From NCBI GenBank assembly GCA_905178155.1, contig CAJINV010000008.1, positions 4,117,420-4,181,419 of the forward strand: a stretch of 64,000 nt of DNA, read 5' to 3'. The position numbers and the translations under genes are program-made. Positions within the stretch are counted from its first letter, which is position 1; the number at the start of each line of letters is the position of its first letter. A model generated the notes under the pieces. The model had not been told where the DNA came from, searched no databases, and was given only the letters and a program-made list of their open reading frames with translations. This document shows, in pieces, positions 1 to 27,873 of this stretch. Source of the stretch: Amoebophrya sp. A120 (lineage: Eukaryota; Protista; Dinoflagellata).

Positions 1-193
1 GTTGCCGTGGCGGCTGCGTTGTGGAGGCCACCCGACCGTCCGTAAAGATGAAGATCTAGCTTTATCTCCGTTCACGTGTAGACTAAAGTCGTCGTCGACA
101 TGTTGAAGATCTCCTTTTAATACCTGACACGACTCCGATCCTAAGCCAGCTTCGACGTTTTCACCTTCAGACTCAGTAGAAAATATTAAACAC

Positions 194-5449: not shown

Positions 5450-7941
5450 ATTTAGGTTTAAAAGATGTTCTGGAGTGAGATACAGTGACTGATGGAAGAT
5501 CGCAGAAAAAATCCTACCGGTCGATGTTGAAGGAAGTTCGACTAAGCTACAACCGCCGACGAATTATATCCTGAAAAAAGAGACCGCCGGGTCAAGAACA
5601 CATGGAACACGAATGATTGTTGTTGATGCTCAGTGCAAAGGTTTCGCACATTTTTATCTACTTCAGATGTTGTGACAAAGAGAAGACGGCGAGGTCGAGT
5701 TGACACACTGCATACTTAGAAGTTGGAGCACAGTGAAAAAAGCAGGCCATGCTGACGAGAAGGATATCGTCAACTGCCTAGATATCACTGCCACCACTTG
5801 AATTTGTGCACGGAACTTGAGCGAAACTTTTTAGGAACTTTTTTTTGGCCTCTGAAGCTTTCGCCATACCGCCGTGATTGGCGACTTTGAACATTGTTTG
5901 AACATTGGTCGGATCCTTTGTTCGGGGTTCAAGAAGTGGCCCTTCTACCTTTGAAACGCAGGCTGTTTCTTTGATTCAACAAATTCAGCGGCTTCGTTTT
6001 TGAATCAAAAAGAAAACTCGCTTTGGGGCTAGTGCGCCGTCTTTTGCTGGACCATTTCCGACCTGGCCTTGTCCTCGGGCTCAGGTATATCTGGCCCATG
6101 GAGGCGAGATGGACCCTGCGGACGGGGGCAATTCCGTCCATTGCCGGGCCCCAGATTGTTCCGCGTCGCGCCAGGGCTTTTACAACCGCGCGACCACTCG
6201 CTCGCCTTTGTTGGGCGTGGTTATTCGTCACTCCCAGCAAGCTAGCGCCTGTGGCAACGCCCGCGGGGCGTCTGGCCCTTTCTCACATCTACCATACCTT
6301 CGTGTAACGCGCGTTACACGAGCGGTCTATGCTTCCCTTTCGTCGGCAGGCTGTCCCTGGAAGCTACAGAGGGGCGGACGCTCCGAATCTTTCCGACCCC
6401 TCCCCCTGGGGTGTCGGGGGTGATCTTTTCAGGATCTTCGTGGGTTCTCAGGGCGTCGTCTGTGGCCCGTCGTGCCGCCAGTAACCATGCTGACGAGAGT
6501 GATATCGTCAACCGCCTAGATATCACTGCCACCACTTGAATTTTTCCAAAAAAACTTGTGGCTGCGCGCATTTTCGTGCGATTCTTCCTTTTCGAAAACG
6601 CTTGCTGGGCTGCGCCATTCGCTGCGACTGTATCCTCCGGAAAACACTGCCCATACCATGCTGATTCGCCTGGTTTTTTGGGTCGCTTTCGTGCGTCGGC
6701 GCGAGTTGTCCGTGGTGCAAGCCTCCTGGCGGAGGCTTCCTTCCTGAGCTGCCTAGCCATGGCCGCCTTCCCTGGCTAGGCAGCACCGGGAGTGGCCGTT
6801 GTTTTCGGAGTACATGCTCTGGCCGTGGTGCCTTTCGATTCTGCTCTCAGAATGCCTGCGCAGCATCGGGCGAGGGGGTTCTTTGGCAGAGTGGGGCTTC
6901 TGCGTGCACAGCCAGAGAGGCAGCGCCCTATGGCCACGGCCTTGCGCCCACGGCTACTTAGTCCAGGGCAGCAAGGTGCTGGGGTGTGTTCTGCCTCGCC
7001 CCGCTGCTTCGGTACAGTTCGCAGGAATAGCAGCAAAACCACGGGCATCGCAATCTGTACCAGCGGCGTTCGTCCACAATAGAACAGAAAGAAATAAAAT
7101 CTGATAAGGAAGTCTATATCGTCAACCGCCTAGATATCACTGCCACCACTTGAATTTGTGCACGCGCGGCGGTTTCAAGACAATCCAAATCTGGATGAAC
7201 TACGTTGGCAAAGATCCAATTTCACTCTTTCGACACTCTTTTTCAGAACCAAATAGCTAAAGCATCACAATTATCGCATAAGTGTGTATGTCTCTTAATT
7301 ATTATACCAGAAATCGCTTTATTAGATCTCTTTCGCAGCTGCACAAAAATCAGAACAATTCATCAAGCACTACCCGCCCGCCTGAAGAACTTCTACGCCT
7401 GTAGCTATTTTTTTGTTACAGGATATTACTCAAAAACGAAAAGAGCGAATGAATGATGTCCTGGGCTGAGACCTGCGAATTTAATGTCTTGTCGGTGCGC
7501 GTTGTGATTCTGTTTCGTCATTTTTTTCGTTTGTATGAATAATGAACAGCAGGACCTTGTCCTTTTGTGCCTTTTTAGCTTTGTGGTGTTATTTTTGCTT
7601 TGCTGGTTCCCATCATTTCAACTTTATTTTCAAGTGCGGGCAGAGTAAGAATAAGAAACAAATATTTTCAACTTTTTCGCATTCCAGTCGTCCATGAAAG
7701 AAAACCCCTGCGAAGAAAGATCGTTTTGTCGAACAACAAGTACGCGAAGAGTGTGAGTATGCGGATTGATTCTGATCTAGTTGATGAAGTGTTTTAAAGT
7801 TTTACGCGCGACGATGGCCACGACTACACCAGCGACATCAAAAACATTGGGACATCGCAGCTCCGTTCTTGCTTTTGGTACATCAAGGTAAGTACAACTA
7901 CCTGCTGGCTTTTTTCCGGAAAACTGAGTGGAGCCAAGAAC

Positions 7942-8526
7942 GTGAAGAAGATGAGAGTCGTGGCGCGTTCTTTCTTTATCTTGTCCGTAGTGTTCGGAGA
8001 GGTTGCAGAGCAGGCGACACATCAACAAGAGGCAGCGCAGATGCAGATGCAGCCTGTTCATGAAGATGGCGGGCGCGTTCAGCGTCCACCGCAAGACCGG
8101 GCGAAGATCGTGGGAGCTCCAAGTGGCGCCAACGGGGGTGGCGGAAATCCAAGTGGCCCCAACTTGGGCGTGACATCACACCCGGCTTCGCAACCGAGTC
8201 TTCTCGGCGGACTTGCTGACGGACTTGCTGCAGCGGGCTTGTCCTTTTCTTGGCCTTCTGGCCACGAAACTGACGCAGGATCTGCGCCTCCCGCTTCTGC
8301 TGCGGATCCTAAAGATAGCGCTCGCATACCGCAACATCAAGAACAACCTCGTGGACGAAGTCTTGTCCGCAGCGCGGCCAACGAGGACAGACGACGCGCC
8401 ACTCCGTTTGATACTGACAACGAGGATGGGGATGATGAAGACGTCGAGGATCAGGATCCGACGTTGGCCGGCTTGCAGGCGCTAGACGCAGTCACCCGCC
8501 TAAACGCTGACTTTAGGCCATGCTGA
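7942..8526 (+). pseudogene. 5' fragment of a signal-peptide protein gene, truncated by array repeat 4
   Basis: MRVVARSFFILSVVFGEVA looks like a signal peptide. The last codons and the stop (agg cca tgc tga) are supplied by the repeat's left extension at 8515-8526. Confidence 0.5.
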
Positions 8527-8870
8527 CGAGAGTGATATCGTCAACTGCCTAGATATCACTGCCACCACTTGAATTTTTGCGGGCTGGCAGGAGTCGGCCT
8601 TACGCTCTTGCTCGTTGAAAGCGAATTGCTTTGAAGTGCCCTGCTATTGGAAATGAATTACTTACAATGCCTTGGCATAGAAAGTATTTTGTTAGTTTGC
8701 TGTGCTAGTATGTTGCAAGTAATTCGTGTTCAGCGCCAGGTCGTTGAAAGCAACGCGCCTTCAATATAAGGGGTCGCCTAGCAGCTGCCACACTTGAGCC
8801 TTTCGGAAATGCGTTCCCCCACGTCGGACTTGTGCTCTGGCCGGCAGTAGGTCTGAAGACCTCGCGCAAA

Positions 8871-9412
8871 ATCCGAGAACTTCGCGGATGTGAGCTGTCA
8901 GAGAACTTTCGCGCGCAAAGTGCCGAACTTTGGCCCCCTGCTCGTGAAAGTTCGCTCCACGTGTCCAAGCGAGGCGATTGTAGAAAAAAAGCGGAAATCC
9001 TGGGAACTAATTTCTGTAAGTCCGTTGCGTAGGATTTGCAGTCAGGTCGGGATTACCGTCCGAAACGCAGATCCTACGCAACCTACTTACAGAAATTAGT
9101 TCCCAGGATCCCACATACAACAACTCCTCGGATGTCAGCTCACATCCGAGAACTTCGCGGATGTGAGCTGCCAGAGAACTTTCACACGCAAAGTGCCGAA
9201 CTTTGGCGCTTTGCTCGTGAAAGTTCGATCCGCGTGTCCAAATGAGGCGATGTAGAAAAAACACGGAAATCCTGGGAACTAATTTCTGTAAGTCGCTTGC
9301 GTAGGGCGTGTCGCCAGACCGGGACTATCGGTCGAAACGCAGATCCTACGCACCTGCTTCAAAATTTTTGAAAGCCGAAGACTTAGGAACTGCTCTGGGA
9401 ACTAATTTCTGA
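8871..9412. repeat. Direct and inverted repeat cluster in spacer 4 (MITE/TE-end-like)
   Basis: ATCCGAGAACTTCGCGGATGTGAGCTG...CTGGGAACTAATTTCTGTAAGT occurs at ~8871 and ~9144. Inverted arms of ~43 bp at 8997-9039 and 9067-9109. Confidence 0.85.
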
Positions 9413-9489
9413 AAGCTCTAAGTCAACCGCCTAGATATCACTGCCACCACTTGAATTTGTGCACGCATCAAGAAACAGGGGCAGGGCGG

Positions 9490-9750
9490 CAGCTTACCGA
9501 CGCGTTCATCAAGGAGCTCGGAAAGATGCTCGATGAGGGCCTGATCGAGGTCTGGAAGGATGGAGTGCAGTGCTCCTCGGAGCGCATTCTTTCCAGCCGG
9601 TGCATCGTAGACCTGAAGATGGTCAGTAGGTGGCACTTCCGTGTTGCCTGCAGGATCGTTCCGGGAGGTCATCTCAGTTCTCTGGAGGTGTCGGCCGAGA
9701 GTCCAGCTTTGAGCGAGTTGGAGCTCCGTCTGCTGGTCTCGTCTTTGCGC
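9490..9750 (+). mobile_element. Fragment of Ty1/Copia-type reverse transcriptase
   Basis: AFIKELGKMLDEG...RILSSRCIVDLK...VACRIVPGGH...SAESPALSELELRLLVS resembles the Copia RT N-terminus (A..E...L / I.SRWV..K / KARLVARG / TFSP...R.LL). Begins right after repeat 5 and lacks the rest of pol. Confidence 0.6.
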
Positions 9751-10020
9751 AAAGTGCGGGGAAAGCGGGTACTGCGTTCAGGTGACTTGTTTTTGTTTTT
9801 GTTTTTCAATCGAAAGATGAGCGAACAAGATGAGAGATGGTCGTCTGTTTTTGTTTTCATCTTTTTTGTCCACAAGAATAAGAAGGTCGTGATATCGTGC
9901 GTAGCATCGTGAAATAAGTCGTATTGTCGTACTGGACTTTTTTCCTTCGCGCTTTTCTTCTTGTCGTGGTAAAAATAAAGTTGTACGGGTCGGATTTTCC
10001 TTTGTGCCTTTTCTTTGTTT

Positions 10021-10155
10021 ATGCCAAGCACCAGAATTATGGGCAACGAAGGAAAGGCAAACACACATATCCGACCTTGTTTGTATGTTTTGTTTGGGCT
10101 TGGTACAAGCCAGCGCAGTTGAAAGTTCCTAGTTTCTGTTGAAGTTCCGTTTTCG
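10021..10155 (+). repeat. Split direct repeat A1
   Basis: 135 bp; matches 22714-22848 with 2 transitions. Confidence 0.95.
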
Positions 10156-10761
10156 ATTATGAAGTCCTACTGCACTGGCAAGATTGTGGGAGTTTCTCAC
10201 CCACACTAGTTCCCCCTTCAGCAGTCCGTCCAGAGTTCCTGAAGAGTGCCATGGATGATAAATGCGATGACGCAGCCCTCGACCGAGCTTTATGGAAACG
10301 CGCATGCATTTGCGTGCTGACGATGCTCTGAACCGAGACCACCGAACACCGCGCGCACGTTGTGTCACAGGTATAGGTAGAGTTTTTTGTTCTACTTGGT
10401 GATGTTTATGTGATGTACTTGCATTTTCCGCACCCACTCTCTCCATGTTCCATCACATCGAGCACCCAGGTATGCTGTGGTGAACTTGCCCAGCAGTGCC
10501 CCCGGCTTCGGCTAGGCCCACTGCTGAGCTATGTGACCTGCAGCCCCATGCGTTGTCACCAGCGTGACGTAATACGCGTTCCCCTCGAGCCAGCGGGACA
10601 AGTGAAGCCCCACGCTGGATGTGGAAAACCATGCTTGGGATCAGTATGCTTGCTATACTTTGCCTCGTAGCACTTGAGTGCTTCACTATCCCGTGCTTGA
10701 TTTTATCTCTACTCTCACAGCGGCCTTTTGTGATAAGTGACTCAGTCTGATAAGTAGCATC

Positions 10762-11238
10762 ATGACAGAGCCAAGCAAGAAGAAACTCGCGAAGGACAGC
10801 AAGGACTTCGCGCTGTTTGTAGATCCACCTGCGAAATACGACAAAGACGCGCTTGATAAGACCTTAGCCTCCGTAGTTTATCGCCTGAGTGACTGCGAAA
10901 TGGTGATCGAACATGACAGACATTGCCTCATCTCGCTTAAGCGTAAAGAGCTACAGCTTTTGAATCTAGCGAAAGCAATTGAGACGACGCGCGACTCTGA
11001 GACGCGAGAGAAGATTCTCGCAGCAAAGCACGAGTTAGACGCTAAAACTACGGGACTGAGCGGGCAGCCCCTGGATTTCGATAAAATCCTGAACCGCGAG
11101 CGCGGTATCTGGATTAGCAACATCAAGCGCCTTGGTATCTCCAAGGACCAGATCGCTCCGCCGCCCTACCTCCCGAAGAAATATAATAATCCTTGCCTAG
11201 ACTTGCTTGTTTCATTTTTAGAGAATAAAGAATCATGA
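10762..11238 (+). CDS. Accessory ORF of the YR element, 158 aa, basic N-terminus and coiled-coil, unknown function
   Basis: ATG start with NLS-like PSKKK. Its stop overlaps the ATG of a small hydrophobic ORF (ATGA at 11235). Confidence 0.55.
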   Translation: MTEPSKKKLAKDSKDFALFVDPPAKYDKDALDKTLASVVYRLSDCEMVIEHDRHCLISLKRKELQLLNLAKAIETTRDSETREKILAAKHELDAKTTGLSGQPLDFDKILNRERGIWISNIKRLGISKDQIAPPPYLPKKYNNPCLDLLVSFLENKES

Positions 11239-12551
11239 TGAGTCTCTCCTCTCTCCTCGCGGCTGGCCTGGACTTCGCCAAGCGGAACAAGTCGCACTAC
11301 TGTGGATTAGCGTTCTTCTACCTGACGAGCCAGGTGCAAACACCTGGCCTCCTTTTATTATCCATTTTTTCTTTTTTGCCCGAACTCAGTGTTTAGCAAG
11401 CATATTCTGGCGACCCGGGTGTAGGCTTTTCCTAGTTGACAACAAGCGGTGGTGGTACGAGGGGACGCCCTCGATCGTCAGTCCTAGCTCACCTGTCAAG
11501 AACAGTGCAGCATACCGCTACTGAGCCAGTGATGAACCGGCAGGGCCGTACACCCTTGCTGGGGAGCTGACAGCATCAGGTCACTGCCAGTTCTAGTGGC
11601 CGCAAGGCATCCTCTAGCGAAGACTGACCCACCCCGCGCAGCGCGCTTTTCTTGTTCGTGGATCACTCTACCTGACACGCATGACAAATTTGCCCCATCT
11701 TCACTACACCCAGGTCCGCATCGTAGCTGCGATGGTAGTCTACACGTACCTCCTCAGCCCCCAGTCGACGACTTGGATTTCAACCAGTGGAGCGTTTGCG
11801 GGGATGACAAATTACGCCCTCTGGCAAATGGCCGAGTTGTGTCGTAATAAATTTATGCTTTTTGCGCCATGCGTGACAAATTTGAAAAATTTGATGAACT
11901 TATTATGAAAAAGCTGTTCTTGTGCATCCCAAAAGTTTTCTGGTACCAAAAAGCTCCAGGATGCGCCCGTGGCTGTATGGCCAATCTACGGAAGTTGAGG
12001 CTCATGGCACAGCAGAACCGCAGCGAAGCGGCGGGAGCAGCTGCTGAGTTCTTGCGTGTAGATCATCATCATGAGGACTGAAAGTGGTGCATTCCACTAT
12101 TGAAAAATGAACATCTGATGTCTAGTGTGCTACGTTTCAGACGAAAACACTATATCACAAAATGCACCAGCAGAGTCGAAAACTACTAACGAGAATTGGC
12201 GCGACTCAATCGCAGCTCGCGGAGCTGTCACCTCCTGCTTTCCTCCTGTGCTATGAGTTCGGCAGCAAAGATCATTAGAAAACGACGCATCACAATTGTA
12301 GACTCATTGACACCTGCGTCACAGATGAGGTATCACAAATGCAGACTTATAGAGCGACGAGCGCAACACAGCGTGAGAGATTGAGGCAGAGAAACCAGAG
12401 GTGTGAGCGGGTGCATGAGAGACATCTTTTGCGAGCACATAGAGGGATCCTTTCTCACAAAAAACTCTTCTAGGGTGAGCTGCTTTCTTGTTTTTTCTGA
12501 CCAGCCAAAGACGCTGATGATGATTTTCAATAATGCGGTTGCTGGAGATGA

Positions 12552-12702
12552 CCACTTTTGAAGCTGTCCAGCTAATAAGCTGCCCAGTGACGCTCATCAC
12601 CTCCTACGCCACTTTTGAAGCTGTCCAGCTATAAGCTGCCCAGAGACGCTCGCCACCTCGTGCGCCACTCTTGAAGCTGTGCAGCTGTATGCTGCCCAGA
12701 GA
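12552..12702 (+). repeat. Three ~56-57-bp tandem repeats just upstream of ORF1 of the YR element
   Basis: CCACT(T/C)TTGAAGCTGT(C/G)CAGCT...GCTGCCCAG at 12552, 12609 and 12665; ATG follows at 12713. Confidence 0.85.
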
Positions 12703-12712
12703 AGATATCAAG

Positions 12713-15700
12713 ATGGCGACTGGTAAAAATGCCACACCGAAGGCGAAGTCGAAAAGCCCCGCTACTCGAGCCAAAAGCTCGTCTAGCGCGCGGGCATCGA
12801 CGAAGGTGCCTCTGTTTCCTTTTGATGAAGACGACCAGTTTCCTGCATTACAAACAAAGTTTCCTGCATTACAAATTAGCTTCCCCTACGAGAAGCATTG
12901 CGAATTAGTTTCCCGCATTACAAATTCCATTTTCACTTGCGACATCGTCCTCAGGTAAAATCACAGTCCCCTGTGCGGCCATCGCTAGTTGACTCAGATG
13001 ATGAAGGTGGAGTGTCCTCGTCCCCGCCACAGCCACCATCTAGTACGCCACCACCAAGCCCGCCCCAAGAAAAGCCTCCTGCATCACAGCCGCTGCCACC
13101 AAGTACGCAGGACTCAGAGATCGATCTCACCCCTTTCACAAGCTACGCGAGTGGCAGTTCTAGCACCCCGCTGCTGTCACAGCAGGATGACACCTTCCCG
13201 CTGACCGCGTCCCAAGATGACCTCTCGAGACCCTTGATGTCCGCGTCGCAATTTCTGAGTCAGCCGTCGTCGAGACAGCGGCAAGTGGCGACAAAAGTAG
13301 AACTACCTGGCAGCGGTAGTGACGATCGGTTTATTGACATGCACCTACTCGACACTACACTACTGGCTGCTGACCGGAGACGGCTCCACCGCACCAGTCC
13401 CAGCGTCAGTACTGTCGTGCGAAGCTGAAGAACCGCTCGACCCGACGACGCCCAAGGCAACCTCGATCCAGACCACCACGGACAAGAGGAACTCACGAGG
13501 CGTGAAGCTCTTCGACCTAGGCACTGTTCGCCCGATGGGACCACCAGCAGGACCGCCAGCGAAGAAACACAAAAAGTCCGTCTCCTTCGACAGAGCTGAG
13601 ACGCGTGAGTACGCTGTGGGTGCGCCGCCAGTAGTGCAAGCAGAAGATGAAGATGTGTTGATGGAGGACATGTCAGCCCTGAACATCAAGCCCGTGAGCT
13701 CGCTGAATTTGGTGCCAGTCGACCCGGAAGAGCTAGCTCGACGAGAAGAGCTTGAATTGAAATTGTGCATCACAGACAAGCACGCGCAGAAGCTGACGTT
13801 GGACTTTTTCGAGCTGGCAGAAGCGAACTCATCGCCCCTCAGGCAAGATGCTCTCCCGTCGCTGTTCCCGGATGAAGTTGCGCCGTTGTTGCAGCGGCAG
13901 GTGGAAGTGGCGTTCAGAATGACGTCCATGGGGCGCACAGTGCATGCCAGGCTGGTGGAGCGTGATTGTGACTCGAAGAGGCTGTTCGAGGCCAATCTAC
14001 CGCATAGCGCGGACCTGTCAATGAAGCAAGCGCTCGCGATTTTCTGGAGAGTCATCGGTTTGGTCGAACACGACCGCGGCATGCGCGTAGCAGAAGAGAG
14101 CATCGGCGTCTTGACAAGACTAGTCCCTGTTCTTCCTCTTCCCACTTGCCCAGAACGACCGGCAAGCGCAAAAAAGCGGCGGAATTCGCAAAGATTGCAC
14201 CACCTCGCCCTGTCGAGTCCGATCTTCTTCGCGGCGGAGGTTTTGTGCGGAAAATTTTTCGACATCCAGGAATACACGGCAAAGCACTTCAAAAAACCCG
14301 TCTCCAAGCAGACCTTGAAGCTCAGCTCCCAGATGGACCCGGTGTACCAGAAGAAAGTCCAGAAAGTTGACGCTTTCGACATTGCAGACCTTGATAAACT
14401 TTGGGTCAAGACATACAACCTCAACGGCATCGACTACCCGGTCGACGAAGTGTTGAAAGCCTACATTGTCAGCGGGCTGTGGTTGCGGAGAATCTGGCTG
14501 CACCTGTCCGCGGCGGATTGGTATGCGTTGAACGCAATTGCACAGATCCTGCCGGAGCCCTTGCAATTCCTCTTATACGATTTTCAATTGGCGTTTGAAC
14601 AAATCTACTTCAGTAAAATGTTGCCGCAAGAGCTGACAGACATCGTCTTCAGGATGCAGGGCCCGAAGTGGACCCGCGCATTCTGCCGCTCGCTCAACTC
14701 CGAGACCGGGATGCCCCAACCCTTCGCGGAACTACCGACCCTGCATCACTCTGCCATAGATGCAGGCATGCACTTGTTGTACTACGGAGCCCAATTCTTC
14801 AAGCGGACTGGCAGCAATGCAGACCGGAATTTTGCGGAATTCCCAACTGTGGGTGGGTCTACAGATCCCGCCCGTTGGTTCAGCGACAATTTGCAGGACT
14901 CCGTGATCGACATCCTCAGCAACTCGCTGGCGCGCAGCAGGGATTTGAATTCGAGGATGCAAGACTGTCTCCCCCGCGGCAGACAGATGCACAACGTGTT
15001 AGTGATGCACAGCCAAGAACTCCCGGCGTCCTCCAGGATCGACCCGGTTACTTTCCGCCCGTTGCATGCTCTCAACGATGCGGACGCCCGAGAATGTCAC
15101 ACAGTGCTACGCGAGGTCATGAACCAGAGCAAATGCTTTGCCCTCAGCCGCGCCTCGAGGACGGAGCAAGATTATATGAAATGCTTCGCCACCTCGAACA
15201 ATTTTGCGTTGCACGCCGACATCTTGTGCTACGCGCTGGACCACGACCACGCCGCTGACACCAAATTGTCCTTCTTCTCGAGAGTGAAACTCAGTTCGCA
15301 GCCGCGGAGCGGCCCCGTGCTGACGACATCCGCGATCCAGCAGATAGCAGATGACGTGCGGGATAAGCATGAGGAGACAGACGAAGCCCCTGATGCTGCA
15401 GAAGCGACGAGAATTCAAGCAGAGCTTGCTGCTGGCGTGTTAGCGAGCGAAGAGGTTCACTTTGAGGCCTCCGACCACGAGATGGACTTCTACGACTCCC
15501 TGGCTGAAGAAGAAATGTTTGATGCTGCGATGACGGATTTCAAGGATGTGGATAGAAGACTAGTCGACGAGCAGCACATGCTCTTCGCCGACGCCGCTAA
15601 GCGGTCTAAGTCTGTGTCGACAACGTGTGGTAGCAGTCCTCCGTCGTCATCGCCGTTAACGTCGCTTGCCAGCAGAAGCAGCAGCAGCTCGGCGTACGGG

Positions 15701-16723
15701 CAGCAAGTCGCGCCGACCAGCGCGTTAAGCAAGCTCAAAGGCAAACTTGGAAAAGGAAAAAAGCGTTGCCAGGCTGGCAGTGTCAGTAGCAAGTCAGAAG
15801 AGAAGGGAAGTGAACCGAAGCGGTGGCAGGGCGACACGTTGTACCCGGATGCCGGTGCGTACGCGTCAAAGAAAGGGCAAGGAAAGCAGAGGATGTTTGA
15901 GCAGCAGCACGACTATGGGAAAACCAGAGCCCCGCCGCAAGTCGCGCGTCCAAGTCCGTACTCCGCCCCGTTTGTGAGCCCGCACTTCATGCCCTACACG
16001 CACCCAGCATTCCAGTCCCACCAGCCCTCCCCGTTCGACCCCTTCAGCCATCAACTTGGTGGCATGACCCACCTGTTACCGATGCAGCCGGAACCCAGTG
16101 TGGAAAATGCATATGGACGCTGCATTCGCAGGCTCGGGGTAGTCCCCCTCGACGAAGAGGGATGCCCCCTCATAGAAGACCCGGAAAACACGACGTCGTG
16201 GGACCGCAATCAGTTCGAAGACAGTGAAGGTTGGATGGCGTCGTCAGCTTTTGCTCTCCACTGGAGAGCAAGCGGAGCGCCGATTGATTCAACGACAGTC
16301 CAGCTAAGTCCCTTACTCTGGAGGATCTTGAGGCGCATAGTCGACGCGCTCACGGGCGTCAGCGTTATGTTTGTGGTGCATTACTCCAACGACGAGTTGC
16401 TGGCCAGCCAAAAATCACACTTCTGCGGTCACCCGTCCACCATCGCCTACATAGCAGCAGCTGCAGACCCGATCAGGAAGACGCAGCTCGGCGACGCCGC
16501 AGTGACGTTAGCACTCAATGGGTATCATCCCCGCAGTATTTCTTCCGAACAAGAAATAACACAAGCGGTAAAGTTAATGGCGAAGCCCACCTATGCAGAC
16601 GCGAGCCTGTGCACCGCCATGATCCTCATCGCCAAAACAATGCACGGGACGACGGCGTGGCGTGGACCCGAGCTCCGCGTAAATTGTACCTTTATGGCTA
16701 TGCCACAAAAAATTGCTAGCTGA
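12713..16723 (+). CDS. YR-element ORF1 (gag position), ~1265 aa if spliced
   Basis: Three overlapping ORFs join in frame by removing GT-AG introns 12806-12954 and 13316-13379. No domain recognised. Confidence 0.6.
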
Positions 16724-16861
16724 TAGCAGCGACGTTTGCATTCAAGTTTTCTGTCTTCCACTACAATGCAGTTTGTCATGCAGGAAATTTACATCATACC
16801 GAATCTGTAATACCCCTGCCACTGCTGACATTTAGCCCTTTTCTCCTGTGGCATAGCGTGC

Positions 16862-17843
16862 ATGTCGACAGAAAAATGGTCGAAAATCTCCAAAACCTGC
16901 GAAGAGATGCTCCACATCCTGCGGCTGCATCGCGGGAAAGAATTTGAATTAGAATTGAAACAAGCGACGACAATTGCCGAATCGTGTGAGTCGAAAAAGA
17001 TTACTTCAGCAGTGCTAGCGTGCAGTGACCTGCTCAAGAAAGAAGAATTGTTATCGCAGCTCATCGACATCGAAGCGCGATTCACCGCGACCGCGTCGAT
17101 GGACAAGCTGATCTCCGATTTCGACAAAGCCGGTTTGGTCAAGAGGCTCGCCATGCACTGCATCCAGCTGAAAGACGCCGGAGCAGTGCCATCTCCAGAT
17201 GACGTGGTCTTCTGGGCGTCGCAGAACAGAGTCATGATTGGCTTCAGCAAGAAAGCCGAGAAAGACAAGAAGCCGTGGAAAGGAAGCAGGTCGTGGCAGA
17301 AATCCGACGGTGATGAGGATGCCAGGAAGGACAAAGGCGGGAAGAAGAAAGGAAAAGGGAAAGGAAAAGGTAAAGGTGGTGGTGGCAAAAACGACCACTG
17401 GAAAAAGAGCAAAGACAGCTGGGCCGCCAAGAAATCCGGAAATGATGCTGCCTCCGACACGTTCAAGAGTATGATAAATGATGGCGCAACTGCTATCAGT
17501 CATACCTTAGGGATTTCGAAATCCAAGGTGTTAGCGGAGTGCGGGTGCGTCCTCGAAACGTTGTGGCGCAGAAAGATCAAAGCACTGCTTCTTTTCCCTG
17601 CGTGACAGTCTGTTTTTGCCTCGGCCACAGACCTGCACTTCGCCTGATTTATGCATTGCAAATTAGTCAGCTCATGTAAAAATACACTACCTCTCTCCCT
17701 CCTCGTCACAGGTCAACGGACGCCAGTGGTACTGTAAACATCAGGATGGCAAGCATTCTGAAGAACACAAGAAAGTTGACATTTTCTGCAAGGCCGTGGA
17801 TGACGGCGCCTACAACGAGGACGCTGCGGATGATGAGAACTGA
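16862..17843 (+). CDS. YR-element Lys/Gly-rich basic protein with probable spliced last exon
   Basis: ORF 16862-17605 contains KGGKKKGKGKGKGKGGG. A candidate intron 17527-17711 (AAG|GT...pyrimidine tract-CAG|) joins in frame to VNGRQWYCKHQDGKH...DDEN*. AATAAA at 17937. Confidence 0.55.
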
Positions 17844-18938
17844 AGAGCTTCTAGAGGCGTAGAAGCTCTTCGCTTTTGTTTCTGTTTCAAAATGAATGAC
17901 AGCCACAAGTGCTGAGTGCCGCTGTTCTCAAGCTGCAATAAATGCATCAGCGTGCTTTTTATTCAAGTCTGGGACTTCGTATTTTTTACAGAAAAGACTT
18001 GTACAAATCACCGCTGTTTGCGACGACGCACAAATATTCTATCGCTGTGACCATGCCGGCTCGCCATGAATTGGCGCCGTCTGATGTGCCTCAAATGCTC
18101 ACTATGGTGCGTTCGTGCTCCGTCATCACCGTGGTCGTCCTTTCGTGCAAATACACAAAGTTGCGCAAAGAATTCGCACATCGTGAAAAGAATTCGTATA
18201 AAGAGTTCGTACATCAGCCTCAGAGTGAAAGCTAGTGGCGCTCTCGGGCGATCAGTCATATGGGCACGCCTTGAGCGACATGTCCTACATAGTTTTTGAG
18301 AGACCACCGCCACAGCAGTATGAGAGTGACATTCTTGCACGATCTTGATTCTACTCTCCGCACGCAATATATGTTGCTGAGAGACCAGAGTGTTGATGCT
18401 GCCGCATCACAAGAACCATTTTTACCACCACCCTTACAGGACCCGCCCGTAGGAAAGTTGGATGCTCGCACCTAGTGCTAAGTAGTTTTGCCACCCTCCT
18501 TTGAAAATGAAGTTTGGCCCGTGAGTCATGTCACCCTCTCCCGACGTGCACAGGTACCGCTGTTGCAGTGAGAGACTGATTTGCGTTGCTGATTCTGATG
18601 CACATAAATCGATGCAATTTGATAATGAAAGTGCATTGGTTTTTCACTTGCAAAATCAACACAGCAGCGACCTCGTCGACCTCGGCATCATGACCGTCGC
18701 CCGCCACAGACGCCACGCACAGAAGGACTACTCGCAAGACCTGGCGCAAGTAGTGAGAAACGTGAGAAAAGAACCCACAGCATGTGGGAAGAAACAGGCA
18801 TTGTTGATGCATATTGGTAAGCCTCATGGCCTGTCAGGTGAGCATGTACATTTGCAGTTAGAGTGACATTATGACACATAGCTCTGCCTGCATGGAAAAG
18901 CTGATCACTATCAGATTCTACAAGAGCTGGCAGAACGG

Positions 18939-21144
18939 ATGTCGATGGGAGTCGAAGACGTGACTTCAAGAAAAAACCTAGACTCTGTGCAACGCGCGCA
19001 CAAGCAAGACCTGGCAGTGCAGCCGCAGCACGTCACGGACTTGAACACATACTACACACAATGTGGCAGCACTAGGCTCGCCACGGATGTGAAGTCCCCG
19101 GCTTTGTTAGCAAATCTCGCGACTGATAGTGAATTCGCAGATTGCAAAGTTAGATCTAGGCTCTTTGGCTATTGCCTTGAGGATGGTAGCTGGTCCGCGT
19201 CAGGACACTTCAGTCTAGGACTCCCAATCCGAGGCGTAGTAGATAGGTATGGGCTATGGGACAACGCTAAGCCGATGTCCGACAAAGACATAGACCGCCT
19301 CAACTCCTGCCCTGTCTCGCCTAGAGAAAGAGCAGAAGCACAAAAGCAGTTTCACACAATCAGACGCAAGCCGTACCCTTTTGAAACACCTGAGTCATTA
19401 GCAAAAGGCATAGAGGAAATAAATAAAAATATTTTTGACCCCAGCCTACCGCTCAGCGGCTCCAACAGCCCGGTGCTGTGGCCCGTAGAGTCTGAGGCGG
19501 CCGTGCGTGAAAATGGAAATGCAGTAGTGATCCCAGTCTTTACCTTAGGACAGAAATACTGCCCTGTAGAGCAGTACTTCAAAAAGTGCAGGATCATAGC
19601 TAATGAAAAATGGATCAGCTCAAGCATGAGTGCGATCCAAGAGCGCCTCTCCCTTAGTGACTTCCCCACTCACAATAATTGATGCGATCCAGAGCGTCAT
19701 CGCCCCAGGATCTGACATCCCTGTGGTATACCTCAAAAGCCACCTGTATGAGCAAACTTTAGCGAATAAGAACACCCATGAGTCATGGGAGGATCTGCCT
19801 AGAATAGAGAAGGGCTGGACGTGCCCTGTTGGGGACGGCTTTGTGCCGTGTCTCTCAAAATTAGATTTGTTCCAAGCGTATTTTCAGCTTGCGAACAATG
19901 ACGCGGACAACTACTTTATTAGTATCATAGCCCCAGACGGAGAGGTGAAACTCTTTCGCAGCACCGCTCTAACCTTTGGCAATTTGCATTCGGTTTTCCA
20001 TTTTTGCGGAAGCTCGAGTGAGCTTATACAAAAAATTTTACGCTACTACCTGCGAGCCCCCTTTTATGTCTACATCGACGACATAATTAGTATGATGCTA
20101 CCACAGCTTGCAGGTCACGCCCTGCGCTGTGCGAAGCGCATAGTCGCTGCCATAGGCTTTGCCCAAAGCGACCGAAAGGATGAAATAGGTAGACTAAGCC
20201 ATGCCATCGAAGTCCTAGGAATAGCATACAGGGCGCAGCTAGATGGCGCCCACTTCTTCATGCCAGATGACGCGATCACGTCTGCGCTCGACATGATAGA
20301 CGCTTTCCTAGTGTCCCTTGCCTGCTGCGCAGTTAGCCTGAAGCAGACGCAGCGACTACTAGGCACAATGATACACCACCTGTACTTTCGTAAGTATGCA
20401 GACTGTGGCCCAGTTATATCACTACTGAACAGGCTCACATGCCCGCGCGAGCAAGGCAGGCTGAATGCGCCTACAGCAGCAGGATCGCGCGCAGCTGTAG
20501 AAGTACTGCTGCAAGAAGCAAGAGCTACACTGCTTGCAAGCGCCCCGTTTATCATCTCTACCCACACGATCCACAGCTCGTGTGTGGAGCTGTTCACAGA
20601 TGCAGCACTAGAAGGCGCGTCAGTGTGGCTCGGTGGAATTATTCATGCCCCAGAACAGCAGCCGCTGTTTTTCCGCCTGTCCTCCACTGGCAGCCTGGCC
20701 AACCTAGTACTCCCGCCTACGCTGCAGAGCAGGAGAATTTATGTTTATGAACTGCTAGCCATACTAGTTGGACAGAAGCTTTTTGAAGCGCATCTACGCA
20801 ACGCTGTTGGCGTGTCCCACTGTGACAACATAGGAGCTGCCTTTGCTGTTGTCAAAGGGGTGTCGCATGATATCCCTGGTGCTGTGCTTGCCTCCCTCAT
20901 CGGACAGCACAGGAATAGCATCAACAATAAGTCTATCACGCACTACGTTAGGAGCAAAGTAAATCACTCCGACGCAGTTACGCGGGACAGAGAAAGGGAC
21001 TTCCGCCTGTTCATCCAAAAAACAGGCGCTGAGTCAGTAGAAACCGCCCTGCCCGAGTGGCAAAGCGTTGCGCAGCAAGCACTAGATGATGTTGCAGCAA
21101 AAATTCTAACCTATGAGAATCTTTGTGCATCTGTGTCTGAGTAA
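18939..21144 (+). CDS. Reverse transcriptase-RNase H (DIRS-type pol), +1 frame break near 19650
   Basis: RT motifs KCRIIAN, KLDLFQAYFQL, ALTFGNLHSV, YVYIDDII, EVLG. RNase H motifs LFTDAA, YELLAI, HCDN, VRSKVNHSDAVTR. Confidence 0.9.
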
Positions 21145-22224
21145 TGGCCAACTATCACGCCCCTGCGGCATCTTAGTACCGCTACCAGGTCCGCACTGCA
21201 GTGCAAAAGCAGCAGCAGCGACAGCGTGGGGTCCGCGCCCACAACCTGTTCCGCGACCCGAAGAACAAGCTCAGGCTAGATGAGGAGCTCAGGATCTGGC
21301 CCACAGAGCTTAGCTATGGCTATGATTATATGATGAGCAGATCCTGCAGGTGGTCAGCTTTTGTTAGTTGGTTTAACACAAAATTCCCATCCAGAAAGAT
21401 CTACATCCCTAGGATAAATGAGCCACTGGACAAGCTAAAGTGCCCGAGTTTGATGTTCTTGCGTGAGCTACACGAATATGGCGTCCATCTCATAAACGTA
21501 GATCAAGGGCAGTCCTACCACCTGCGCCTAAGCACAGTGCCCCAGCGCCTTAAGCACTTGAACAAGCTAGACGTAGGCTGTGCTTTTGCAATAGAAAATC
21601 AGTGGTCGATGTATGCGTCGCTGAACAGACTTAAGTCGCAGGAAGATCCGCAAAAAGCATCCCCTGTCACGCGACAGCAGCTCGAGAAGCTGAGATACAA
21701 TGACAAACTCCTAATGCAATTCTGGATAGCAACTGCCTTCAGGGTCAGTAGCTTTGCTAGTGTCACGATGGGAAAAATCTTTGATATCGGACAGGATAGC
21801 GCCGGCGAGTTATGGGCCGAGGTTTTCACAGATCATGTAAAATTTAACCCATCGCCAGGAGAGCTAGCTTTTCTCTGTCCTAGTCCCTCTGAAGTTTGTC
21901 TCCACACCAAACGCAGCATGTGTAGAAACAAAAACCGCGTACTACAAGCGGCTAGCACAAGGAAAAATCAAATCCACGCCGCACTGTGCACGTCGCACAG
22001 CCGCTATGGCACTGCGGCTCACCTTTGCATCTATGAACCTTGGTGGAGTATTCACCATTCCTGACCTGTGCATGGACAAAATTGCAGACCAGTTTGGCTG
22101 GTCACGCAAAACAGCACGCAGAAACTTCATCAACTACACTAGGGACTACAAAGCGCATTGCAATTCAGAGCTCTGTTTCCCACGTGCCACCATGAGCTGG
22201 ATTCTGAGTGAGTGGTTTTTGTGA
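21144..22224 (+). CDS. Tyrosine recombinase, interrupted (in-frame TAG at 21174; +1 frame break between ~21868 and ~21980)
   Basis: FWIATAFRVSS (catalytic R) and HVK lie in the first frame. TPHCARR (HxxR), FGWS and NY (catalytic Y candidate) lie in the +1 frame. Start ATG overlaps the pol stop (TAATG). Confidence 0.8.
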
Positions 22225-22495
22225 AGCCCAGTCTGACTGGCACTCTTTTGACGCCAGCAGAGCAGCACACTTCCAAGCTCTGGCTGGGCGCCAAGTTAGC
22301 TTTAAGCAGGTTAGCGGCAAACTGCTGCCGCACGTGGCCTCTAAAGCCTTACAGTTGAACCTGAAGCCACCAAGTTGATTGCTTATCGCCCAACCTGGCC
22401 AGAAGGCCCATGGTATGTCTGCATACCGCTACACTATGGCCGTGCTCATCCCAGATCGTGAAACCCGATTGGCAAATTGATCTTGGATTCCCACT

Positions 22496-23141
22496 GGGTT
22501 GAACCTTGATTACGGTCACACCAGTCGTTCCTCATTGTCGTTCCGTTCTCAAGTCGTTCTAGATCAGTTTGTGATCGTGTTTCAGGTTTAGCCCGTGGCT
22601 AAGACAGATGCGTTGCGCGTGCCACACGCCCCGCGCGATCTTCGGATGAGAAGTGGTATGTGTGTATGTCGGATATGAAAACGGTTGCCTTGACTGTAGG
22701 CGTGATAATAATTATGCCAAACACCAGAATTATGGGCAACGAAGGAAAGGCAAACACACATATCCGACCTTGTTTGTATGTTTTGTTTGGGCTTGGTACA
22801 AGCCAGTGCAGTTGAAAGTTCCTAGTTTCTGTTGAAGTTCCGTTTTCGCCCTCCCGACGTATGCGCGTACTAAAACCCACTCGCAGTGCATCCGTCTTCC
22901 CAGCCCTTGACTATCGTCACTTGGGGTTGAACCTTGATTACGGTCACACCAGTCGTTCCTCATTGTCGTTCCGTTCTCAAGTCGTTCTAGATCAGTTTGT
23001 GGTCGTGTTTCAGGTTTAGCCCGTGGCTAAGACAGATGCGTTGCGCGTGCCACACGCCCCGCGCGATCTTCGGATGAGAAGTGGTGTGTGTGTATGTCGG
23101 ATATGAAAGCGGTTGCCTTGACTGTAGGTGTGATAATAATT
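22496..23141 (+). repeat. 3' split direct repeats B1 (22496-22713), A2 (22714-22848), B2 (22924-23141)
   Basis: B1 and B2 are 218 bp each with 4 transitions; A2 abuts B1 directly. Confidence 0.95.
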
Positions 23142-24720
23142 CTGAGTCGCAGTAGAAATAGATATAGAATGTAAGAAAAGAATAACTTTAAGAAACCGAA
23201 AAAACCCGACTAAACGGGCACAAACGTCCATGACCTTTTTAATGCTTTGGTGGAAACAAAACACACTGGACCCATCCTTTCTTTGTTTGCCCGCTGGTTG
23301 GCTCAAGGTGCCAATGAGTATACGAATTCTTTCGTGTAAAACTTTCCGTGATTCACATTCTGACTATTGGAAGAATTGAAAATACAACACGCATGGGATT
23401 CCGCAGTTCTCGCCGCCAACAAAAGTGATGCTCGAACTGAATCCAGAACGAATCGGTCGCATTACAGGACGTGAGAAGAGCGACTTCTGATCCCGACAGA
23501 CCTATTTTCGACAATATCGTCAACCGCCTAGATATCACTGCCACCACTTGAATTTGTGCACGCAAAAGGTAAGCCGCCAGGCCCTAGCGATTTGCCCAAA
23601 ACAATCCCGCGCCGAGGGCTTTCCGGCGCTCCGTTTTTTCAGGCGCCCGACTGCCGCCGCCCGCCGCACAGGGCCCACAGGCACGACGGCGGGGGCGCGC
23701 CGCCATTCGCGACGGCCGGTCGGTTCATGGGGCTGCGCGAATCGGGCCGCGGCCCCTTATTGGCTTGCGGCGGAGGCCGAACGAAGCCGCCCTTCCGCGG
23801 CCGCCCCGGACAATTTCCGTGGCGCCGGCCTTTTCGTTTCCCTGGAGGTCGTGCATGTGTGCACTTTCGGGGGCTTTGTGGCGCCCGTTTTGCTGGCCGA
23901 AAGTCCGTAGTTAGCTGCTTACCACCAAAATCCACAGCATGCGTTTTTTTTCGCGCCAGCGTGTCCGAGCATGCACCCAGGGAAACGGTGCCGGGCGCCT
24001 CCTCCGGACGCTTTGGGGCTTGCTGCTTCGAAGGGGCATCGAGATGATTTGGCGCATGGCCCAAGGCCAGGCCTTCTGTTTGTTTCTGAGAGTCCTCGCG
24101 CGCTTAACGTGGGAGACCCAATGGCCCATCTGGTGGTGGATTGCCTCGCTGTATTGGAAGATCTCGAAGGGGGATGGCGCCCCTCGGCCCTTTTTGCCCC
24201 CCTCGTCCCTTGCGTTTCGCGCAAATATGCGACCAGCTACTCCAGCCCGGAAGTGATCTCTGTGCGTGGCTATGATGTGGCGTAGGACCAACATGTCTGC
24301 GGAGCAGTCGCCCTGCTTCGAGACGAGGCAACAGCGCAGCAGGGTCTTCGCCAGCGCCGTGCCCTTGATCAAGTATGTCGAGGCGATGCAGCGAAGGCTT
24401 CGCCGCCGGAAAAGGCCGAAAGACCTACAAGCATGGGCGCGCACTAATGTCTCAAAAAGTAGGCCCCTAGTTTTTGTGCGCCACTAGCTAGCTAACTTAA
24501 CTGATTAGCTCGCGCATTGAAGTCGGGGACTATCCTCCTTGGAGAGCCGCTGGCGGATGCCGTCCGGGCAGGTTGCGGGGCCGGTTATCATGAAGCTCCG
24601 CCAGTGCGTTAAAATTTTTTCTCTTTGTGGAAATCCGGGGTAGTGTGGACAGTTTTCGCCAACGTATAGATATCACTGCCACCACTTGAATTTGTGCACG
24701 CATCAAGAAAAGTTGTAAGT

Positions 24721-25331
24721 CTGCCCCGGTAAACCCTCCGTCTTCATCTCCCGCGGACGAAGTAGGCGCAGCTACTTCTTCTATTGACGACTTGAAAAAC
24801 GACCAGCAGAAGATCAATAGTTTGTTTCGAAACAATAAAGATCATGCATTTAACAAGCGGGGCAGGCCGTTGGCCTCGCCCAACCTCAACACTGTGGACG
24901 ACAAGCCCACTGCTTCTGCTAATTCATCTTCGTCTTCAGCTGTGCCTCCAGGCAAGCCAGCTCCAGCATGGGGTGCCAACGCTAACAAGGGACAAAAGCA
25001 TGCCCACCACAAACTTCCGGATCCTTCTTCTCAGAAAAACCATAAGGGTGGGGGAAAGAATCTGAACCAGAAAGAAGTGATTGCTACCTCTGCCCCTGCT
25101 TCTGGACCTGCCTTCCATACTCCACGCGGAGAAACTGTTACCCCTATCCACAACAACCAGCATCATCATCAACCAAAAGGCAAAAACCAGCAAGGAGGCG
25201 GTAACCGCTTGGGTCAGGGATCTGGTCGCTATGCCTTCTCCCTCAGTGACAACAGGCCGCAGAATCATTACAACTTAAATACCCAGGATTTTCAGTCGCA
25301 ATCCCAGTCGCAGCACACTGCTCATCGCTAA
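24721..25331 (+). pseudogene. 3' end of an unknown low-complexity (N/Q/H/K-rich) coding sequence in spacer 7
   Basis: Reading frame starts at or near repeat 7 without a proper ATG and is followed by T-rich 3'UTR-like sequence. Confidence 0.4.
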
Positions 25332-27873
25332 TAGCCTGCTTATGCTTATTTCTATTTTTGCTTATTATCTTTTTCTTTTGCTTATCACTGCTTCTCTTCT
25401 CTCTGCTATCCCAACATGCGATCTATGATAGAGGTAGCTCTCAACTTATTATTGTTTTTTCAATCAAGGTCAAAGTCACTAGCTGTTCCTACACGATCCG
25501 GAAATGATGACGCTGTATTTCCGCTGCATGTTCTGTGCCTATCCACATGAGAGTTTTCGTCATGCAATTTGGCTTCGTCTTCCTATGTTGAGTTCAATTA
25601 TTGAATTGGTTAGTGCGAAGCACCAGAAAGTTCTTATCTCATCTGCAATGCTTGCGTCAGTTATAGCACGCTTTGTGCTACTCTTCTATTTTTGCATGAC
25701 GCCTTGCATAGAGCAGCATTACATTTTATCAACAGGGATTTGTATTGCTTGTCTCTTCATAAAAATGATTCATAGTGCTCAGAGTATTTTTCTACCCTAA
25801 TGCCCTATTTTCTCTTGCATGCATGTAGCATGTGCTGATACATGAAAAGAAGCCATGCTACTCGTATTTCATGTTCAAAAGCGTTTCTTCCGTCGTTTGT
25901 GTAAGCACTGTCTCATGAGAGAAAAAATGAGAGATTGATAGCTGCTGCTATAGCGATGCTGCTGAATCATGAGAGAACAAATGAGAGATTGATAGCTGCT
26001 GCTATCAGCGATGTTGCTTGCCCATTCCCATCACGAGCATATTCATGGCTGGAGCCGCAGATCATGATCGATCTGTGCACCGTCGGCAAACGGTGTGCAG
26101 GTTTAGGCCGGTGCTTAAGGCGCCCGTGAAGACGTTCACATTTACCAGCAGACCACCAGAAAACGTACAAACGAACACTCGCTTGCTCCTTTCCTCTTCT
26201 TCTTTTCGCGCCCTCTTTAGGTTCTCATTGCTCCTCATTTCACTCCTAAAAATGAACAAATCAGCGACTTAGGTGTGCTTTTTATTATTTTTAATTTTTA
26301 TTTTTTAATAGGTTTAATAGGTTACGGTTAGCATCTGTTTACTTTGCTATGCTTATTGTTGTACTTCTCTAGATATCACTGCCACCACTTGAATTTGTGC
26401 ACGCGTGTTGGTGACTATGACGGCGTAACTGGTACTGAACCTGGGGGCCGAGCGAGACTTAGTGACCGACGCTCCTTGTGCGGCGAGGGGTTTTCTGATC
26501 GTTCGACTTTGCTCTTGATGGTGAGTGTGCAGGCGAGCGTCACCGAAAAGCAGGCGCGATCGAGTGCAAAGTGGTGGTGTTGCCTGTGTATAGTAGAATT
26601 TGCTCTGCGTCGCACACCCCATGGCACGCATAGAGTGTGGCCTCCTTGCGTGACCTTTGTTTATTTGCTCCTGTTCCAGACCCAAACACATTTGTAATGC
26701 ATATCGTCCTTTGTGTGGCAAAGTGAAGTAGAGTGGAGGCACATCGCCATGGGCTGGCAAGCGATGGCAACCTACGATCGGCTCTGCCACCGCTTGCGAC
26801 CGAGCGGCCGCCATCTGTTCGACCTTACCACGGAGGCACAAGTGGTGCGCTATGGTTGTGCGACAGCTTCGCGGGCGAACGTAACAAGTAGACGGTGGGC
26901 GCGGTTGCCGTGGCCTTATATCGATGAAAGTGCACCCACCCCATCTTCACACAGGCGTAGTGCTGCAGCAGACACTTTTCAGTCGCGCTTGCTGGTTATG
27001 TTTTATTTCTGGTTTGTAATGGTGCACAAGATATGTGAGCAGATTGCTTCGTGGCGGGGATGTCACTGCCAGAGGCAAACTTGTCATGCATGATACGCGC
27101 GCTCTGTTTCGGATTTGTATAGGCAGATCGCATATCCTGGGTATGGGGTGGGTGTGCTTTTGTTCAAGATATATCTTCCACGGGAATCGCGAGCGTCTGA
27201 AGTCGAATTCGGCGAAAGAGTGCGCGCGATCAGCAAACCTGATTCCACCAACTTGATTCCATTTCTCAACTTGATTCGACAAACGCGATCCTGTCGCAAA
27301 CGTGATCCCGTTAACGTGATTCCGCGAGTAAACTTGGTTCCAAAAATGTCAAAACGTGATACCGATACTTTCTCTAGATATCACTGCCACCACTTGAATT
27401 TGTGCACGCATCAAGAAAAGTTGCAAGTGTCGGGTGATAGAAGAATCTACAACCATTATATATATTTTTACTCGCCCGGGACGATAGCAAAAGATTTGAC
27501 TTGTTTCGTTCTTCATTCCCATGCAACAAGAAGACGCACGACCAGCAGATGCAGGTCTGCGACGCAGTACGGCTGCACTCTGGGAGATGACGATGACTGC
27601 AACCACGAGCAAGCCTAAAGTCTTGCTGCCTGATGACGAACGTCGCAAATGTTCTGATGTTCATGCGCCGCGACCGCCATCTTCCGATCAACAGGCGTAA
27701 GATCTCGATTTCCTGCTGGCTCAGAAGGACAAGCAAGGCGGTTCAAATCTTGCAACATATCCTTGTTGTATGAAAACTACAACTATATGTTTTTTCATTT
27801 TCATCTCGTCTCCTGAGATTGGTAGACCTTGAGATTTGGCAATCTCACATCAAGTACAAGTACTATTTTAACT

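Follow-up and report, generated by a model that had tools for sequence, protein, structure and literature searches.

Clustered regularly interspaced short palindromic repeat (CRISPR) arrays add short spacers at one end, and at the 3′ ends of prokaryotic tRNA and other genes tandem genomic islands set unrelated modules between variable-length partial repeats around a common core, the island carrying the repeat. Mobile elements can also reuse a target that they have duplicated. In the U2 small nuclear RNA (snRNA) arrays of Phytophthora, different Utopia families stand in tandem at one conserved target, with duplications of up to 20 bp in some lineages and very diverged spacers (PMC4640811; this and the other papers given by accession are cited from passages of each). 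Dada DNA transposons, which enter U1, U6 and tRNA genes in hosts that include the alveolate Perkinsus, can occur as two families in tandem at one site with the duplicated target between them (PMC3706591), and in tandem casposons and CRISPR arrays the duplication of a reused target, 14–35 bp there, separates successive inserts (PMC4779613). Here we describe an array of nine repeat copies and eight inserted spacers from the dinoflagellate Amoebophrya sp. A120, at positions 5744–27428 of a stretch of 64,000 nucleotides (GCA_905178155.1, contig CAJINV010000008.1, positions 4,117,420 to 4,181,419 of the forward strand), hereafter called the window. Most likely the array is a self-regenerating insertion hotspot that was filled in trans by target-specific machinery, and it is likely to be the scar of one site that was opened and refilled eight times.

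The repeat copies share an exact 27-bp core, which occurs nine times, always on the + strand, at 5779, 6517, 7131, 8550, 9432, 23529, 24667, 26370 and 27375 (start-to-start distances 738, 614, 1419, 882, 14097, 1138, 1703 and 1005). By chance alone, such a 27-mer would be expected 6e-12 times in the window. Allowing up to eight mismatches on both strands added no tenth core, and three 12-mers taken from the core were each found in the window only at the nine core positions, with no partial cores. The first-pass annotation of this DNA had noticed nine identical, co-oriented cores and none elsewhere in the window, and both observations stand. It had also described the 27 bp as an invariant repeat, which needs correction: the copies are 35–69 bp long, each is a variable part of one ~90-bp site, and the 27 bp are their intersection. 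Copies 1 to 9 (all +) lie at 5744–5812 (core 5779–5805), 6485–6543 (6517–6543), 7116–7165 (7131–7157), 8515–8576 (8550–8576), 9422–9475 (9432–9458), 23514–23564 (23529–23555), 24667–24720 (24667–24693), 26370–26404 (26370–26396) and 27375–27428 (27375–27401). To the left of the core they extend by 35, 32, 15, 35, 10, 15, 0, 0 and 0 bp, and to the right by 7, 0, 8, 0, 17, 9, 27 (with one change), 8 and at least 27 bp. The original left flank is joined by copy 1 only and the original right flank by copy 9 only, and no copy is complete. Changes number 0 in 243 core sites against 4–5 in 245 extension sites (p 0.03–0.06). In a small sample of eight events, the right extensions group at 0, 7–9, 17 and 27 bp, steps that each come close to a turn of the helix. 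Between the copies, the eight spacers are mutually unrelated, as had been noted by eye (best pairwise E 0.11; tblastx of the spacers against the window gave short, low-identity pieces only, which we judged to be chance). An interval size of 0.6–1.7 kb had been given for all eight segments; it holds for seven, and the fifth measures 14,097 bp because a 13.1-kb element sits in spacer 5. Once that element is removed the interval is ~0.9 kb, and counted in this way the spacers range from 572 to 1649 bp.

The extensions can be read as nested target-site duplications, in which case events 1 to 8 duplicated 66, 42, 70, 37, 59, 36, 54 and 35 bp, the eighth ~44 bp if a copied spacer end is included. 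Under the rule that a later event copies only what its target copy still holds, 7 of 1430 nested-duplication trees were compatible with the extensions; any tree at all was allowed in 6.3% of 20,000 shuffles and in 4.7% of 20,000 uniform draws. All seven trees place event 3 before 1, 1 before 2, 5 before 4 and 7 before 8, and none is strictly polar to the left or to the right. The copied spacer end lies at 27365–27374 (+): apart from one indel, spacer 8 finishes in the same ~9 bases as spacer 7, a match that 2 of 3000 random pairs equalled in score. A sequence related to the last part of spacer 8 parts from it at 27364, at the start of this piece. It would seem that insertion 8 took a copy of the last bases of insertion 7, so that the piece is read as part of the eighth duplication, and this agrees with all seven trees independently placing event 7 before event 8. 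The first-pass proposal that one target had been repeatedly opened, filled and re-duplicated thus gains support from the nested extensions, from the copied end of spacer 7 and from contigs that carry the junctions.

These contigs are among those listed from eight of ten read runs (the ones used here are X1 to X5 and X7); summed contig depth is a rough measure, and we therefore calibrated it, single-copy sequence having a depth of 23–24 in X1 (left flank, nested element) and 41–43 in X2 (right flank, spacer 8, the contig adjoining copy 7). Nine of the 18 core junctions were found among the listed contigs, six bridged by at least 31 letters per side and three by 29–30; they include an X1 contig running from the left flank into copy 1, a junction contig of copy 5 in X5 and X2 contigs at copies 7 and 9 (depth 41.4 at the latter). 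Two of the junctions also turned up in another sample from another study (X4, X5). A control unitig common to copies 5, 7 and 9 had a depth of 2.9 copies against 3.1 expected, and the core unitig 9.5 copies against 6.7 expected; there are therefore about three further cores of that type, or ~12–13 in the whole genome, where the arm of an introner reaches a bin depth of 1123 in the same run. With several junctions in short-read contigs and ~12–13 core copies, the core is neither an adapter nor a common transposable element (TE) end, so that, on short-read data, neither of two alternatives named by the first-pass annotation is borne out: an assembly or adapter artefact, or a widely dispersed TE terminus whose single element family supplied all the spacers. 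The spacers are, besides, unrelated. We regard it as barely credible that unrelated contigs were stitched together through a repeat or an adapter, even though just half of the junctions are in the listed contigs, short reads cannot establish the order of units, the branches of spacer 6 are missing from the X2 graph, and X1 and X2 may come from the sample behind the window.

The same calibration bears on where the spacers came from. Spacer 1 (5813–6484, 672 bp) has ~8–16 genomic copies (X1 per-site depth 184–372, and 846 at one site, against 23.8), and another copy of it runs into different sequence at both ends (loose ends at 5811 and 6484). In X3 a copy of spacer 1 departs from the window exactly at junction 6484 and continues into a short perfect inverted repeat. 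Spacer 2 (6544–7115, 572 bp) has ~3 copies (X1 depth 73.1 and 68.6), and its right end enters the repeat unbranched. Spacer 3 (7166–8514, +, 1349 bp) holds an open reading frame (ORF) at 7798–8514 that is truncated by the repeat and has ~2 copies (X1 depth 54.5 and 49.4); the second copy is diverged by ~1% or more (11 differences, one of them 11 bp from the junction), and the left extension of the repeat follows there too. Over 7456–8504 the X1 contig departs from the window at ten listed positions, always by a change of an A, probably a result of tie-breaking between two collapsed copies. In an X3 contig of 1243 nt (depth 93.5), a stretch with ~90% identity to the opening 300 bp of spacer 3 (7167–7467) begins within one base of the junction. 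Spacer 4 (8577–9421, 845 bp), with an internal 218-bp duplication and a 54-bp inverted repeat, has ~2–13 copies along its length, and its left end was cut from a longer family sequence: four X1 and two X7 contigs agree on other upstream sequence at 8580. A motif from this spacer had no match in metagenomes. Because the other copies of spacers 1 and 4 leave for other sequence at the junctions, they lack the core, whereas the extra copies of spacers 2 and 3, which enter the repeat unbranched, point to a second locus or a longer allele.

The left part of spacer 5 (9476–10018, +; X1 depth 19.3) starts within a Copia-like reverse transcriptase (RT) frame at 9478–9780. This reading, already made in the first pass, has moderate support from an RVT_2 neighbour in the atlas (score 0.93, rank 5 of 30), with no match in Pfam. 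A diverged second copy of the end of this part (9816–10020; depth 33.4, with indels) continues for 23 letters past the start of the nested element and is possibly its element-free state. The right part of spacer 5 occupies 23142–23513. Spacer 6 (23565–24666) is 1102 bp long with a GC content of 0.61, and spacer 7 (24721–26369, +, 1649 bp) consists of the end of an ORF (202 codons, no start) followed by non-coding DNA; a 1332-bp contig adjoining copy 7 and covering part of it has single-copy depth (43, X2), and a 54-bp tandem duplication lies at 25913–26018. Spacer 8 (26405–27364) is single-copy overall (X2 depth 42.4) and contains an orphan introner arm (26671–26710) and a motif-rich repeat end (27264–27364). 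The ORFs of spacers 3, 5 and 7 are each cut at a junction, at least six of the eight spacers hold repeated or TE-derived DNA, and TE pieces occur in spacers 5 and 8. The inserts had been taken for foreign DNA. In our data they are mostly the genome's own repeats, spacers 1–4 being repeated in the same genome by calibrated depth. No spacer matched phage DNA, and the two spacer ORFs tried, of spacers 3 and 7, had no relative among viral contigs or among longer proteins, the latter being weak evidence.

The element within spacer 5, missing from the first-pass account of the array, is a Ngaro-type retroelement of 13.1 kb (10019–23141, +). It shows the A1-[ORFs]-B1A2B2 layout of split direct repeats that is described for Ngaro (PMC8547959): A1 (10019–10155, +) is identical to A2 (22712–22848) at 135 of 137 positions, and the right end (22496–23141, +) runs from B1, starting at 22496, through A2 and a 75-bp unique piece to B2, starting at 22924, with B1 and B2 identical at 216 of 221 positions. 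Only a TT is shared at the junction of element and target, and also with the B1/A2 junction; there is no target-site duplication. The interior opens a 12.4-kb X1 contig at depth 23.1, that is, single copy. An ORF at 19630–21144 (+) combines an RT (RVT_1 E 3.7e-4, below the cut-off) with RNase H-like motifs read by eye, and no homologue of this RT was detected. It is followed by a tyrosine recombinase (YR)-like region at 21177–22224 (+), in two overlapping frames with a frameshift near 21.95 kb; its motifs were also read by eye, no profile matched it, and its structure model was unusable (predicted local distance difference test, pLDDT, 38). A 1140-residue ORF at 13301–16723 (+) has neither a family nor an atlas match, and further ORFs without a known family lie at 10741–11238, 12880–13428, 16829–17605 and 18882–19682, together with a 56-bp tandem repeat at 12552–12702. 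The split direct repeats, the lack of a target duplication and the nesting in mobile DNA are as in Ngaro, as the RT would be if its weak match holds, whereas the Ngaro elements described from Cafeteria are ~6 kb long, and the larger size, the additional family-less ORFs, the frameshifted YR-like region and the lack of a detectable homologue set this element apart (PMC8547959). It is a later insertion, a late passenger in the array.

For the array itself we lean towards a history of repeated staggered cutting around a 27-bp core that was itself protected, each round inserting fragments of mobile DNA from the cell itself and regenerating the target. Sequence-specific machinery would cut in a staggered fashion on either side of the core, and each event would duplicate 35–70 bp of target, so that every insertion would leave two usable targets; later events would strike internal copies in no fixed direction, and the core would be the footprint that was never cut. 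The nested-duplication reading is supported by the other copies of spacers 1 and 4, which have no attached core at their loose ends (5811, 6484 and 8580). The most likely candidate for the agent is the endonuclease and RT of a target-specific retroelement without long terminal repeats (non-LTR), acting in trans on other templates. We favour it because this class makes long, variable duplications, the target duplications described being 20 bp for Utopia (PMC4640811), 126 bp for R9 and >50 bp for Dualen (PMC9977147; R9 as cited there). Capture at the DNA level, by a nuclease with end joining, would be a close second, since the inserts have no precise junction or tail. Duplications of variable length are made by the HUH Replitrons too, whose target, however, has two bases (PMC10288648). 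The locus would be a by-product that is tolerated because it lies past a stop codon, rather than an archive kept by selection.

Several observations weigh against this course of events. The tree test is borderline (p about 0.05–0.06), and the match between the ends of spacers 7 and 8 was chosen after looking. One C/T base in the left extension must have changed twice, in copies 1 and 4, or have been converted; CpG deamination, considered as the cause of the repeated change, was rejected, as the region shows no CpG depletion. No nuclease or integrase family that could represent the agent, Cas1-type included, was found in the 26 ORFs of the window. The two sides of the junctions both vary and the inserts share no tail, unlike the precise 3′ boundaries described for Utopia (PMC4640811). 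The known target-specific elements insert into multicopy RNA genes, and here no RNA family could be matched to the core. No empty allele has been established. Finally, the repeat also follows the extra copies of spacers 2 (~3×) and 3 (~2×, diverged), and an attachment site that travels with the insert would be the simpler explanation of this.

Such a site would belong to cassettes, each a spacer with an adjoining piece of repeat, that excise as a circle and recombine into the core through a tyrosine recombinase or through homology, much as tandem islands do at the 3′ ends of prokaryotic tRNA genes. The unbranched entry of these extra copies into the repeat is the best evidence for cassettes, which would also account for the ~3 cores that the genome holds beyond those in the window. 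The full site moreover contains a 9-bp inverted repeat with a 12-nt loop, a YR-like gene lies inside the array, and YR retroelements may be site-specific and tandem (TATE, PMC6681497). However, the hairpin is complete in just two of the nine copies, the other copies of spacers 1 and 4 have no core, and the YR element, with its frameshifted recombinase region, entered spacer 5 at a TT dinucleotide instead of using a core. That the end of spacer 7 was copied also points to duplication during insertion. On balance we consider cassettes rather unlikely, and retain repeated staggered cutting with duplication of the target as our preferred account.

The hairpin also raises the question of whether the site is, or was, an RNA gene. 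The core ends, behind the hairpin, in an octamer that resembles what we take to be an Sm-binding site, and a decayed tandem array of a small-RNA gene, such as a very divergent snRNA, could have kept the core as its conserved part while its spacers diverged and gathered TE debris. U1 is recorded as undetected in Amoebophrya (PMC7789003, in the passages cited), and the Phytophthora U2 arrays show that very diverged spacers and different Utopia families can accompany such genes (PMC4640811). Four Rfam scans nevertheless gave nothing credible for the site or the array (the array up to E 5, three short scans up to E 10), and no tRNA was detected. The modelled full site folds as RNA with a modest z-score (−1.7 to −2.2), no complete copy exists, the flanks are joined by the outer copies only, and the spacer boundaries are sharp, with no gradual divergence. 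A decayed small-RNA array is, in our view, very doubtful. A U1-like or hammerhead-like reading of the site, suggested by motifs, was dropped as no model matched. Exact pieces of the core had no match in metagenome, viral and prokaryote collections, and the core is absent from the text of the supplement to PMC7789003, in which the snRNA alignments are figures and hence outside a text search.

The site lies 330 bp past the stop codon of a host ORF in the left flank (128–5449, +; 1773 residues, weak RING-finger matches, single-copy depth 23.8 in X1), and matching contigs, which show neither ends nor strand, stop ~80 bp past core 9. Together these positions suggest that the site probably falls in a transcribed 3′ region. 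One X3 contig, from a run taken as RNA by guess, joins the two flanks, left to right, with a single core between them. We set it aside as an empty allele, since array junctions are present in two other runs of that sample, X4 and X5; copies 1 and 9, moreover, share 35 bp, which exceeds the 31-letter assembly word, so the contig is not proof of one. In X4 the end of spacer 8 (depth 6.1) matches the right flank (5.9), and the left flank, at 12.1, ends in the core. An empty allele is only hinted at by the X3 contig.

Transcription is also central to the idea of a host-maintained capture locus, in which transposon DNA would be sampled into the site and transcribed as a source of silencing RNA, a memory akin to CRISPR or to PIWI-interacting RNA (piRNA) loci. 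It would fit the repeated or TE-derived DNA in at least six of the eight inserts, the better conservation of the core than of its extensions, and the fact that, in what are probably RNA runs, the few low-depth contigs agreeing with the array's own copies lie across cores 1, 5 and 9. The RNA label is a guess, though, and depth over cores 5 and 9 is just 3–6; among the X3 contigs listed, none matches the window's own spacers 1–3. The array shows no polarity, no fixed unit and no uniform spacer size, and with eight inserts an archive would be very small for a genome that harbours many families of TEs. We judge this function quite improbable. A broader version, in which a host or domesticated nuclease binds the 27-bp core, cuts on both sides and keeps kilobase transposon samples between the repeats that are regenerated, with units that are transcribed or that move as cassettes, would make the locus a proto-CRISPR-like TE archive in an alveolate; it, too, is improbable. 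A CRISPR-like memory function of the array is unproven, and several rules of CRISPR fail here.

The window shows two features that are described for Amoebophrya. Its long ORFs lie on one strand, and unidirectional gene clusters have been described for Amoebophrya (PMC7789003). At least eight introner-like elements of ~250 bp each, with TAT-N7-AAA inverted arms, lie at 33587–55640, two of which (41969–42221 and 54077–54329) are 91% identical across 253 bp; their arms start with TAT, seven looser bases and then a run of A, the motif reported for introners of Amoebophrya A120 (TAT, looser bases, A run; PMC7789003). Introner-like elements break up an ankyrin-repeat ORF at 42039–42875 and surround an ORF at 54488–55186 with a weak microbial-rhodopsin-like match (E 1.8e-4, below the cut-off). 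A methyltransferase-like coding region extends across two long ORFs at 46270–50404 (PrmA-like, E 2.9e-9).

The significance of the array lies in its being a repeat–insert array in a eukaryote that was likely built by reusing one duplicated target, the same logic that has been proposed for the birth of CRISPR arrays from the target duplications of casposons. It differs in that the inserts are unrelated kilobase pieces and that both ends of the duplication float around a fixed core. Its agent, if found, would be a sequence-specific system that delivers kilobase cargo of unrelated kinds to an address of 27 bp; and since the locus keeps a readable order of events, comparing isolates can test a neutral scar against a selected archive. 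The lineage is described as having diverse, partly unexplained TEs, in passages that describe no such array (PMC12130899), and we found no description of a like array in the literature searched, which was mostly without subscription papers.

The first-pass annotation had likened the array to a CRISPR or an integron cassette array, an analogy that fails because repeats and spacers vary in size, insertion shows no polarity, few repeats hold the hairpin in full and no clear integrase gene stands beside the array. In contrast to CRISPR, repeat length is not fixed (35–69 bp per copy, with variable ends), the spacers are neither short nor uniform (572–1649 bp), acquisition is not at one end (none of the seven trees is polar), and no Cas1-type integrase family occurs among the window's ORFs. 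As to a foreign origin, spacers 1–4 match repeats of the genome itself, and the searches, which covered phages and, for two spacer ORFs, viral contigs, gave no match. In contrast to integrons, the inverted repeat is not complete at every unit, and the cassettes are not complete single genes, as the cut ORFs of spacers 3, 5 and 7 illustrate. A YR-like region occurs inside the nested element only, where it is frameshifted and read by eye. Tandem genomic islands carry the repeat with them, unlike the other copies of spacers 1 and 4.

With the arrays of target-specific retrotransposons and transposons, of the Utopia, R2 and Dada type, the locus shares a target that is duplicated and reused in tandem. 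However, its target is not a multicopy RNA gene (no Rfam match, no tRNA, single-copy flanks; a very divergent RNA could still fit), and its inserts are not one lineage. Like the Utopia arrays it has different inserts in tandem at one conserved target. Those arrays, however, occupy a multicopy snRNA gene, consist of Utopia retrotransposons throughout and have a precise 3′ boundary (PMC4640811), whereas here no RNA family is recognized, the inserts are unrelated and non-autonomous and both boundaries vary. R9 and Dualen match it in making duplications far above the usual length, variable in Dualen, yet these flank their own element, and no fixed core reused by unrelated inserts is described in the passages cited (PMC9977147). 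Dada likewise separates tandem families by a duplicated target, but the duplication is fixed at 6–7 bp, the elements are related and encode a transposase, and the targets are multicopy RNA genes (PMC3706591). Casposons, in which the duplication of a reused target likewise separates successive inserts, are prokaryotic and driven by Cas1, with a duplication length fixed for each element and related inserts (PMC4779613). In conclusion, the Amoebophrya array works like the reused-target arrays of Utopia, Dada and casposons and yet is a member of none, because its target is no known RNA gene, its inserts are unrelated and both ends of its duplications float around a fixed core.

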